A program made the translations under genes and the position numbers. DNA of 64,000 nt, from the NCBI GenBank assembly GCA_963788655.1, contig CAWBHS010000049.1:236917-300916 (forward strand). The letters run 5' to 3'. The DNA comes from an uncultured Verrucomicrobiae bacterium. GTDB taxonomy: Bacteria; Verrucomicrobiota; Verrucomicrobiia; Limisphaerales; JAFGQR01. A model generated the notes under the pieces. The model did no database searches. It was not told the origin of the DNA and was given only the letters and a program-made list of their open reading frames with translations. Positions 61,666-63,920 of this stretch are shown here, in pieces (positions within the stretch are counted from its first letter, which is position 1; the number at the start of each line of letters is the position of its first letter).

Positions 61666-62198
61666 ATGAAAACAGCAATAAATACCGCGCTGCTGCTCGT
61701 GCTGGTCACGAGCGGTCTAGCCACGGCTCACGCCCAAGGGACACTTCAATTCACAGTCACGCTGAATGGGGCCAGCCAAGTGCCGCCAAACGACAGCAGT
61801 GTCCTTGGCACCGGGTCGTTCTCATTGAATCCCGGCGACATGTTCTATTATGGCGTGGCCTTCTCCGTCCCCGCCGCCGAAATGACCGATGTCACCATTA
61901 ACGGACCAGCGCTTGCTGGTTCACTGCCCCTGTTCTCTTTGACTTGGGAGCACCAGGGCCCTACATAAACCCTCCACCGGGCTTTTCTCGCAGGTCTCCG
62001 GTTCGCTCAACCTGAGCGGGCCTGAAGTAAGTGACCTGCTGGCGGGCTTGTGGTATGTAAGTGCGACATCAAGCACTTACCCCGGCGGCGAAATTCGCGG
62101 CCAAATCACCTGTGCCTGAGCCTTCGACTTGGGCGTTGCTGGTTGGAGGAGGAGTGTTGATGGTGTGGTTCAGGAAGAGAAATGAAAGGGGAGGCTAA
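61666..62198 (+). CDS. Cassette 10 gene 2: CHRD-domain PEP-CTERM protein, frameshifted
   Basis: LNGASQVPPN, LWYV…PGGEIRGQI; VPEPSTWALLVGGG…FRKR tail from 62112; stop in R''. Confidence 0.8.
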
Positions 62199-62322
62199 CA
62201 AGGTCACTGGAGCGAACAGCCGCCCCGCCTCGCAGTTCGAGAGTCACGGGCTTCGGCGACGCGCTCTGGTTGTCGAGCGTCACGGACGTTATCACGGCGG
62301 GGCGGCTGTCGCTCAGTTCATC
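62193..62322 (+). other. attC10, left part; its R' (GTTAGCA) is displaced to 63819-63825 by IS110
   Basis: GGCTAAC…gagcgaacagccgccccgcc/ggcggggcggctgtcgctc…agttcatc|. Confidence 0.85.
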
Positions 62323-63655
62323 TCTGAGGTGAACGGTCAACGGGTTTTTCATTTTTTCTTCGCCCGCTGGGCGGCCTTTTTCTTGCGGCTGGTATAGGGA
62401 TTTTTGCCTAACTCAATCTGATCGAACAATCCCACGATCGGGCTGCCGTGGCGCCGCAGGGCTTCGGCATAACGCGCCTCCTCATAGACCTCCTGGCGCT
62501 GCCAGCAGCGCCAGATCACCGCTGCCACTTAAACGCCAAAGCCCGCACCGCCGTGTGATGGTTCGCGCCCGCTTCCCGTTGCTGCAGATAATACGCCGCC
62601 GCCCACCGGCTCCACAGCACGCTCTCCCGCAAACTCGTGAAAGCTCTGCCGGTGAAACTTCGGACAGCAGTAGCGCCGATGAATGTAACAACTGCCGCCG
62701 CTCCGCTTGGTCACCGGCGCCACGCCCGTGTAGCGCTGAAGTTGCGCGGCCGATGGCAAAGCGCTCCCGAGCTGCCCATCGTCAGCAACCGCGGCCCAGC
62801 ACCGGTCCCGCCCCGGGAAAGCTCGCGAAGATGCCCAGTCCGGATGCGCCGGTATGCCGCGGCGATCTGCCGGTCTCCGTGAATGGCCGGTGGAGCAGTT
62901 GCAGTTGCCGGGCGATCAGTTGCACCCGCAGCGCGAAGGTTTCAACCAGGGCGGTTTCCTCCGTCACCGCCATCGCCTGGCTAAGCATTGGAGCCGTTGC
63001 TCCTGCAGCGTAGCGCTGTGGGAATGTGCTGGCGGTAGAATTGTATGAGGGTCGCCGGTTCGACTTTTTTGCTCGCCGCAAGGTCGGCCATTTTAGCAGC
63101 AATTCCGTGGCCATGGGCCGCCACAGTTCCTCGCCCGAAAGCACGAACGCCTGCGGAAAATAAGCCTTTAACAGGGCGTTCAGCCGGTTGGTCAACCCGG
63201 TGCGTTCGTCCACCACCGCGCGGCGATGAGTGACCGCTTGTTGCAGGGGGCGCGTGGCGCTGTCCTCGGGCGCCCACACGGTGAGCTTGTCGTGATGAGT
63301 CAGGAGTAGTTCAGCTAAATAATCGGCATCCTTGGTGTCGTCCTTGGCGCGACTGGTGACAAAGGCTTCCCGGAAGTTCTTCAGCGTGACCGGGTTGATG
63401 GCGTAGAGGGTGATCCAGGTATAGCTTTCCAGGAACGCGACCAGATTGGCGGCGGGTTGTTCCAGGCAGATCGCGACCCGGGCCTGGGGATGTTGCTGGC
63501 GCAATTGGGCCAGCCAGTCCTGGAGCGCTTCGGGGCGGTGGCGATGGTTTGGTTGGTGCGGCCGTTGGATGCCCGTCAAGGGTGTGCAGATCGGCCTTTG
63601 CGTCGGAGCGGTCCAGGCCGATGACCAGGTCGTAGGGAAATCGGTTCATCGTCAT
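62318..63655 (-). CDS. IS110 DEDD recombinase/transposase, multiple frameshifts
   Basis: VIGLD, ICLEQP, AKDDTKDA, FPGAGPVLG, YTGVAPVTKRSG; ends …VDRSPQR* with the TGA overlapping the target site. Confidence 0.88.
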
Positions 63656-63818
63656 CTTTCATGGTTTTGGTGGTGTGGTCTCCCGCAGGCTTGACCCGGC
63701 GACGGCAATATAGAAGAGTTGTCATGCAATAGAGAACGCCCTCTTGAGTAGTCGTTAGAGGTGCGAGCCCGCCCGGCGGGCCGGTCGATAAAGCTCAAAG
63801 TCGTTGAGGCGACAGATC
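62323..63818 (-). mobile_element. IS110-family insertion sequence inside attC10
   Basis: Junctions ttcATC|tctgag and gacagATC|gttagca; removing it restores gctcagttcatcGTTAGCA; no terminal inverted repeats. Confidence 0.85.
63656..63815 (-). ncRNA. Putative IS110 bridge RNA
   Basis: Long non-coding end upstream of the recombinase; contains CTAACGA (63758-63752) complementary to the target TCGTTAG. Confidence 0.5.
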
Positions 63819-63920
63819 GTTAGCAGACCTGGCCCGCGGAGGCGGGAAAGCCGGATACCCTACGGTACCAATTCAACGGATGCGAATAAGTATGAATCAT
63901 CGTGATCATGTCGGACAGCG

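Follow-up and report, generated by a model that had tools for sequence, protein, structure and literature searches.

The question raised by this locus is whether an insertion sequence (IS) of the IS110 family has entered an attC site of an integron cassette array and whether a bridge RNA of its own may have directed it there. The stretch of DNA that was analysed (64,000 nucleotides, hereafter the window) stems from an uncultured Verrucomicrobiae bacterium (assembly GCA_963788655.1, contig CAWBHS010000049.1, positions 236,917 to 300,916), and the element lies at its far end. A preliminary description, made from this single sequence, had delimited the element by two ATC triplets, placed it exactly before the crossover GTT of an attC site and named the heptamer CTAACGA as its candidate guide. 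The comparison with related loci leads to a different delimitation. We assign a probability of roughly 0.8 to the reading that window positions 62318-63999 are a dead copy of an IS110-family element and that this family, which is common in Verrucomicrobiota, aims at attC with a bridge RNA from its long upstream end.

Identity and borders of the element

The element occupies 1682 bp on the minus strand, including one copy of the GA core (62318-62319); its borders were set from relatives and then read in the window. No second copy was found by BLASTN within the window. As the preliminary description had stated, the layout is of the IS110 type: A minus-strand recombinase gene with both IS110 domains is preceded by a long non-coding end (344 nt, 63656-63999; about 345 nt) and followed by a short one (29 nt plus core).

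The N-terminal, RuvC-like domain DEDD_Tnp_IS110 (PF01548) was detected with an E-value of 3.1e-22 on the open reading frame (ORF) piece 62782-63579, and the C-terminal Transposase_20 or Tnp domain (PF02371) with an E-value of 1.2e-5 on the piece 62529-62759, both on the minus strand. The second piece keeps the motif VTKRSGG, the serine column of which is at least 90% conserved in the alignment of relatives; from the published description of IS621 we infer that this serine is the equivalent of the catalytic S241. The D, E, D and D columns are invariant or nearly so in the alignment and line up with ISCro4. The window gene (62349-63655, minus strand, delimited by domain matches and frame mapping) is broken: It appears in at least four pieces in the ORF listing, and the best reading frame, determined with 20-residue windows of the relative P0002 against the three frames, shifts at least eight times between 63655 and 62349. 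The window copy is evidently a relic that is no longer able to make the recombinase, and its membership in the IS110 family stands by descent; there is little decay in its RNA-coding part. More than 2000 relatives of the recombinase piece were found, mostly of 433 amino acids and about 60% identical, several of which are labelled Verrucomicrobiota; intact relatives have 433-445 amino acids. The loci of relatives used in the following number 53 (designated by L) and were obtained by scanning a single genome of each species. The relative P0002 shows 69% identity to the window recombinase overall, yet its last 59 or so residues are identical to the C-terminal piece of the window (62349-62528), which suggests that mosaic copies occur.

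For the upstream border, the upstream end plus 60 nt of its supposed flank served as a BLASTN query, which matched 37 of the 53 loci. In 36 of these 37, the alignment starts at query position 23-35, i.e. 26-38 nt outside the junction proposed in the preliminary description. The 181 nt outside that junction, GTTAGCA included, are conserved in the 36 loci and have the same internal position there, and the outer flanks are unrelated. A multiple alignment of relatives showed that GTTAGCA (as UGCUAACG), the adjoining GC hairpin and one further hairpin are all conserved. Two pairs of copies, each from one genome, were also compared: L020 and L042 are 98.9% identical over 2145-3832 and show no identity beyond, and L011 and L012 are 99.7% identical from 2138 onwards. 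Alignments and copy pairs agree in placing the element end, TATAGG..., some 355 nt upstream from the recombinase ATG; in the window, this is position 63999. A conserved divergent gene beside the element was considered as an explanation of the "flank" but rejected, since none appears in the ORF lists of L002 and L010.

These results change the meaning of several sequences. All those named previously are present, namely ATC at 62320-62322 and at 63816-63818, GTTAGCA at 63819-63825, GGCTAAC at 62193-62199 and, on the minus strand, CTAACGA at 63752-63758. With the end fixed at 63999 by the alignment and the copy pairs, however, both ATC triplets are internal to the element and do not mark its junctions: The first is part of the right end and separated from the true junction by 2 nt, and the second belongs to what we identify below as the left target guide. 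Likewise, GTTAGCA is not an attC box that excision would restore, it belongs to the same guide. An element that carries a mimic of its own target can thus mislead the calling of junctions from a single sequence.

The left end of the window copy reads TATAGCCTATCCG from 63999, that of the relatives TATAGGTYATCCGAAGTTATTCA; the right end reads ...TTGACCGTTCACCTCAGAGATGA, finishing at 62318, and ...TTGACGGATTACCTCAGAGGTGA in the relatives. The right end (62320-62348, minus strand) contains the -35-like sequence TTGACC (62335-62340), 17 nt from the element end, as judged by the position of TTGNCG in relatives, and a degraded subterminal repeat at about 62326-62335. The opposite end opens with the -10-like TATAGCC (63993-63999) and holds the left subterminal repeat at 63987-63996. 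The element had been described as lacking terminal inverted repeats; the relatives carry 10-nt subterminal inverted repeats near both ends (AGGTYATCCG and CGGATTACCT, 9 of 10 positions complementary), of which the window copy retains only about 5 of 10 complementary positions. Outside the repeats, the upstream end extends by 3 nt and the downstream end by 7 nt plus core.

Several relatives show partial or repeated ends. At L003:999-1345, located 1.1 kb upstream of the full element, there is a solo left end without recombinase gene; it is 97.7% identical to the left end of the full copy and abuts another flank with AACG. A tandem duplication of the initial 25-47 nt of the left end is present at L005:609-680 and L025:2118-2165. 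At L010:204-501 and about 5134, pieces of the recombinase C-terminus and the right end are found close to a full copy and an integrase-like ORF; these look like remnants of earlier insertions.

The attC site as target

In the window, the visible part of the interrupted attC site is 62193-62317 on the plus strand, identified by its inverted repeat and by the right flanks of relatives. Its R'' box is GGCTAAC (62193-62199), and its imperfect L''/L' palindrome leaves two bases unpaired and includes a perfect 14-nt inverted repeat (62216-62229 with 62296-62309); L' ends at 62317 and abuts the element. As the left end is at 63999, only one base of the left flank is visible, and the spacer and R' box should follow past base 64000.

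The relatives supply both sides of the site. Their right flanks, in element orientation, open with an imperfect palindrome that has two unpaired bases in the 3' arm, and in 16 of 35 right ends a GTT follows 6-9 nt past the L' arm of the L''/L' palindrome, as found by a script and also by eye. The 35 include two ends with too little flank, two L010 fragments and seven without an L' partner; the script is crude and mis-set the L' partner of the window itself, so that the counts are lower bounds. On the other side, 34 of 39 left ends have AACG within 14 nt, at a distance of 5 nt in 21, 6 nt in nine, 4 nt in three and 7 nt in one. Both attC boxes flank the element in relatives, with a box complementarity of at least 6/7 in eight loci. 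The two bases before TATAGG are AA in 24 of the 39 left ends, GA in nine, AG in two and others in four; the right end always finishes with GA. With the L' palindrome on the right and AACG plus spacer on the left, the insertion point of the element is an RA core between L' and the spacer.

The preliminary description was hence right in seeing an insertion into attC between L' and R'; the position exactly before GTT does not hold for the main clade of relatives, where a spacer of 5-6 nt intervenes. In this clade only one orientation of insertion is found: The sense strand of the element is the attC strand with the unpaired bases in its 3' half, which we take to be the attC bottom strand. Homologues of integron integrases are encoded at most 2.5 kb away in L044, L009/L010 and L032.

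The upstream end as a candidate bridge RNA

RNAalifold, applied to 33 aligned left ends, predicted a 5' hairpin with covariation and a pair of long outer helices that each close an internal loop with a small hairpin inside. In this structure, 97.4% of the cells are paired and 20 pairs have changed on both sides, compared with 5.4 ± 1.6 in shuffles (none of 500 reached 20) and 3-7 when the partners were slid; since the structure was derived from the alignment on which the changes were counted, the comparison favours it somewhat. Both-side changes affect 8 of 16 pairs in helix 1 (the 5' hairpin) and 6 of 17 in helix 2 (the outer stem of the target loop). Many pairs are G-U and are valid on the recombinase-sense strand only.

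The bridge RNA of IS621, according to the published accounts (PMC11208158, PMC11208160), consists of a 5' stem-loop followed by a target loop and a donor loop, each composed of a stem, a left guide, a stem-loop and a right guide. The upstream end has the same layout, entirely on the minus strand of the window. Its 5' domain (63847-63999), delimited by the covariation of helix 1 and an inverted repeat, contains a long hairpin with the arms 63967-63987 and 63918-63938. The putative target-binding loop (63768-63846), supported by the covariation of helix 2, has an outer stem formed by 63826-63846 and 63768-63786 and an inner hairpin at 63800-63813. The putative donor-binding loop (63689-63768) is closed by a stem of 63761-63768 with 63689-63696, as deduced from the RNAalifold structure and a match to the covariance model R1. 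This model, which represents the donor loop and was built from 32 main-clade sequences, matched the window once (94.9 bits) and 13 of 19 other loci searched, always upstream of the gene; the six unmatched loci lack that stretch. No bridge-RNA family of Rfam was detected in the whole window at gathering thresholds, and the three matches obtained at permissive thresholds for 63600-64000 all had E-values of at least 0.7 and are due to chance. In L017 and L047, which are from different genomes, the target loop contains a hairpin-forming insertion of 32-33 nt (TCCGCC...GGCGGA) just 5' of the right target guide (alignment columns 222-253).

Guides that follow target and donor

The loops contain four segments that match the two partners of a recombination, and the assignment of each rests on its following the target or the element ends across relatives. 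The right target guide, UGAGCUU (first loop, 3' strand; 63791-63797), is the reverse complement of the core AA followed by GCTCA, with which right flanks most often begin; it supplies the second guide for which the preliminary description had found no clear candidate. Across 27 insertions, 123 of 135 positions of guide and right flank are complementary; permutation gave 109.1 (sd 2.5), and 1 of 100000 permutations reached the observed value. Examples are the guide UGACCUU with the target GGTCA (L016, L022, L044), UGAGUUU with ACTGA (L002, L013, L042) and UCACU with AGTGA (L030). The left target guide, GCUAACGNCCAG (first loop, 5' strand), repeats the left flank; in the window it is UGCUAACGAUCUG (63813-63825), which contains GTTAGCA. 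Here, 157 of 216 positions are identical, compared with 143.5 ± 3.9 in permutations, 16 of 20000 of which reach this number. Moreover, TCC stands beside the element in five of eight cases with TCC-type left target guides and in two of 28 with other guides. The target guides therefore follow the flanks, and the covariation of non-coding end and target across the insertion sites of homologues, which had been named as a check, was found.

In the second loop, the right donor guide CUAUAUU (63707-63713) complements the core together with the TATAG at the left end, and changes are compensated: L030 combines the left end TATGGG with the guide CCAUAUU, L025 combines TATCGG with CGAUAUU. The left donor guide CUC(N)AGAGG on the 5' strand (CUC(A)AGAGG, about 63739-63748 in the window) repeats the right end CTCAGAGG plus one variable extra base, which is absent in L005, L022 and L025. 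The same strand carries CUAACGA (63752-63758), the heptamer proposed previously as the attC-directed guide. It is a scaffold motif of the donor loop: (A)ACGA opens the 5' strand of both loops in every clade as well as in ISEsa2, the target of which is not attC, and AACGA is invariant in 32 of 32 aligned donor loops. This is why the heptamer cannot be the target guide; it had been matched to the element's own left target guide. Of the earlier proposal, the bridge-RNA-like structure and guides that match attC remain, whereas this 7-mer does not. Judged from the sequences, the two internal loops match target and donor and change with them, and this applies to all four guides.

The ends themselves fit an excision cycle. 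In 33 of 34 right ends, the distance from TTGNCG to the end is exactly 17 nt, and the left end opens with TATAGG; consequently, a circle junction would form a sigma-70-like promoter. Junction promoters are reported for IS621 and ISEc11 in the accounts of these elements (PMC11208158, PMC11187229).

A distant clade in the opposite orientation

Loci at 41-47% protein identity, mostly from Acidobacteriota, have the same ends and loops. In seven of them (L029, L031, L032, L033, L036, L041, L049), the right flank consists of a core NT followed, directly or after one base, by GTTAGNC or GTTCGNC, and in L029, L032, L036 and L050 the left flank holds the remainder of an attC site. These flanks indicate that the distant clade sits directly before GTT, in an orientation opposite to that of the main clade. 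Accordingly, its right target guides are the reverse complement of core plus R' box (CUAACAU in L032, UAACCAG in L031, CGAACAA in L041). As the left target guide of one clade and the right one of the other would pair with the same GTTAG strand of R', the elements come to lie in opposite orientations, either 5-6 nt before GTT or at GTT.

The donor side changes as well. In 10 of 11 readable loci, the right donor guide ends in a base that changes with position -2 of the left junction, the exception being L036. The left donor guide likewise changes with the terminal bases of the right end (AUGA in L029 and L036, GUG in L032 and L033, UGGUU in L041), with no fit in L031. Four further loci (L035, L038, L043, L046) have other flanks with left-guide matches of 6-9 nt; among these, L038, L043 and L046 are non-attC sites with matches of 8-9 nt.

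Points that weigh against an attC-directed bridge RNA

Several observations speak against our interpretation. In the window, the subterminal repeats and the recombinase gene have decayed, the right target guide pairs with its own flank at 3 of 5 positions only (as in L027 and L020), and the sequence ends one base past the element, with the expected R' box beyond it. Among the relatives, L020 occupies a site without AACG box, L' partner or any attC features, and L042, with the 98.9% identical element, is in an attC-like site; L020 may be an off-target insertion. The first base of the core is often unequal between the junctions (AA on the left, GA on the right). Due to the distance of 4-7 nt between AACG and element, the outer left target guide cannot always pair in register, and this part of the guide coincides with the scaffold motif common to both loops. 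The left donor guide of the main clade requires one bulged base. The permutation tests ignore the relatedness among copies, and each step of the cycle proposed below is transferred to this family by analogy.

Comparison with known systems and alternative explanations

In the published descriptions of IS621 and the IS110 group (PMC11208160, PMC11208158), many features of the family are found again: a recombinase with DEDD and Tnp domains, a long left and a short right end, a two-base core at both junctions, an RNA, putative here, with 5' stem-loop and two guide loops, and a promoter-like junction of right and left end. The differences are also clear. The protein similarity is remote; a phmmer search against the chains of the PDB found ISCro4 only (E 6e-9) and did not find IS621. 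Compared with IS621 as described, the core is not CT but RA, or NT in the distant clade; the left end, with about 345 nt, is of greater length and has an extra structured 5' domain; and the target is attC instead of the repetitive extragenic palindromic (REP) sequence. The 10-nt subterminal repeats differ from those of the IS110 group, for which only 2-3 bp are given.

The closest named relative is ISEsa2 from plasmids of Enterobacteriaceae, with 37.8% amino acid identity over 95% of P0009. Its ends are of the same design (left GATATAGTCATTCG, right CTTGTCGAATGTCTCAGGGCGTGA), and upstream of the gene it has the donor-loop-like sequences CGCUAACGAAUACUCAGGGC ... GGCUAUAUUU, with a weak R1 match (E 0.1). 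In contrast to the family, the copy at L054:975-2465 (plasmid NZ_CP126789.1) is flanked by a GTCCGCT...AGCGGAC palindrome without attC boxes, and its upstream end is shorter (about 225 nt).

As a target, attC is already known from the IS1111-attC group and from group IIC-attC introns (PMC11187229, PMC3001079, as far as these sources describe it). The alternative that the element is another member of the former group (ISKpn4, ISPst6, ISPa21), which targets attC by a seekRNA, we regard as improbable. The IS1111-attC elements, which include ISPa25, share with the family an orientation-specific insertion at one attC end, subterminal inverted repeats and, as predicted for the family, an RNA-guided choice of the target, according to their published description (PMC11187229). 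The 10-nt repeats of the relatives fall within the 7-17 bp of IS1111 and are outside the 2-3 bp of the IS110 group; together with asymmetric terminal extensions, such repeats are described as a hallmark of IS1111, and the same source mentions a few IS1111 members with an upstream non-coding region, e.g. ISMtsp17. The position of the guide RNA, however, argues against this assignment. It is stated to be upstream of the recombinase gene in IS110 and downstream in IS1111, where subterminal repeats are longer (PMC11187229, PMC11208160); here, the long non-coding region has 345 nt upstream as opposed to 29 nt downstream, and the RNA model matches upstream in the window and in 13 loci. The guides are ordered as top-strand match followed by top-strand complement, which is given as the IS110 order and is the opposite of that in IS1111-attC (PMC11187229), and the terminal extensions are reversed. 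ISEsa2 shows 16.3% identity to ISPst6 and ISKpn4 and is listed beside IS110-type elements (identity matrix of Siddiquee et al., source data). As the recombinase of the family is 38% identical to ISEsa2, we judge it, indirectly, to be probably far from IS1111-attC, in line with the preliminary description, which had also set the element apart from this group. Furthermore, the hosts named for IS1111-attC are Proteobacteria with mobile integrons, whereas the family occurs in chromosomes of Verrucomicrobiota and Acidobacteriota. The family combines the layout and guide order of IS110 with a 10-nt subterminal repeat.

Alternatively, the upstream end could act as DNA, with hairpins that bind protein or an attC-like decoy for the recombinase or IntI, and the matches to the flanks could reflect shared attC ancestry. 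Several hairpins and the CTAAC box in the upstream end do resemble parts of attC. We nevertheless consider this explanation very unlikely: The frequent G-U pairs favour one strand only, the four guide segments are placed as in the two-loop layout of IS621, and guide and target change together across lineages with different targets, including the non-attC loci L038, L043 and L046. The third possibility is an IS110 element of about 1.5 kb that has the ATC triplets (62320-62322 and 63816-63818) as its limits, sits exactly before the crossover GTTAGCA and uses CTAACGA as target guide. In its favour, all its named sequences exist, its downstream junction is only 2 nt off the true one and distant relatives do sit just before GTT. 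It is nevertheless refuted by the conservation of the 181 nt with GTTAGCA in 36 loci with unrelated flanks and by the copy pairs that reach TATAGG; the invariant AACGA, which is also present in the distant clade with other targets and in ISEsa2, speaks against it as well.

The cassette array

The array is headed by an integron-integrase-like gene (51445-52806, minus strand; Phage_int_SAM_4, E 2e-25; Phage_integrase, E 3e-26), which an in-frame stop at 51964-51966 divides into two ORFs and which may be a pseudogene. Beyond it are intact attC sites at 53383-53493 and 53947-54072, the latter with the arrangement ...L'-TTGGC-GTTAGCC. The site at 53947-54072 and a further intact one at about 57185-57291 have the spacer and box TTGGC-GTTAG in common and near-identical L' arms, and hence the array apparently carries a repeated attC type.

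Within the array, two gathering-level Rfam matches to group II intron domains were obtained on the plus strand, about 560 nt apart: D1-D4 at 58419-58544 (63.2 bits) and domain V/VI at 59106-59183 (49.6 bits). The region 58419-59183 may be a small attC-associated group II intron. Group IIC-attC introns, as described in PMC3001079, are likewise mobile elements that home to attC, and one intron-like element lies in the same array; in contrast to the family studied here, they are retroelements with ribozyme and reverse transcriptase and have no DEDD recombinase.

Proposed cycle and implications

By analogy with IS621, the family may move as follows. The element would excise as a circle, in which the joining of right end and left end would create the promoter TTGNCG-17 nt-(TG)nTATAGG. 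From this junction promoter, the left end of about 345 nt and then the recombinase gene would be transcribed, and the RNA would fold into the 5' hairpin and two internal loops. In the target loop, the 5' strand (C)UAACGNCCA(G) would represent the sequence of the left side of the target, i.e. the complement of R' box plus spacer, and the 3' strand UGAGCUU would pair with core AA and the first five bases of the L' side. In the donor loop, CUC(N)AGAGG would correspond to the right end, and CUAUAUU would pair with the core and TATAG of the left end. Recombination at the two-base RA core would place the element between L' and the spacer, the sense strand of the recombinase being the attC bottom strand. 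As the insertion parts the R' box from the rest of the site, the attC should lose its function, and the cassettes next to it should become locked to each other.

A wider conclusion, to which we give an even chance, is that the family represents an undescribed, widespread IS110-type bridge-RNA lineage, related to ISEsa2, that specialised on attC separately from the IS1111-attC group, shifted its aim inside the site one or more times, and places RNA-programmed locks on cassette excision in the chromosomal integrons of soil Verrucomicrobiota and Acidobacteriota. In the literature searched, we found no attC-targeting element with an upstream bridge RNA, although the supplements of bridge-RNA papers could list such elements, and nothing relevant on IS110 together with attC and Verrucomicrobi*; in Durrant et al. 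2024 (PMC11208160), attC occurs in the reference list only. If the conclusion is true, a second, distantly related lineage of RNA-guided insertion sequences acts at attC, which would have been chosen as a landing site more than once, and a bridge RNA has been retuned to one conserved box by swapping guides and orientation. The family offers natural covariation of guide and target and of guide and donor for all four guides, with dozens of natural guide-target pairs. Its non-CT core and the combination of IS1111-like subterminal repeats with an IS110-like layout bear on the question of how the two groups diverged. For the integron, each insertion splits an attC site and should freeze the neighbouring cassettes.

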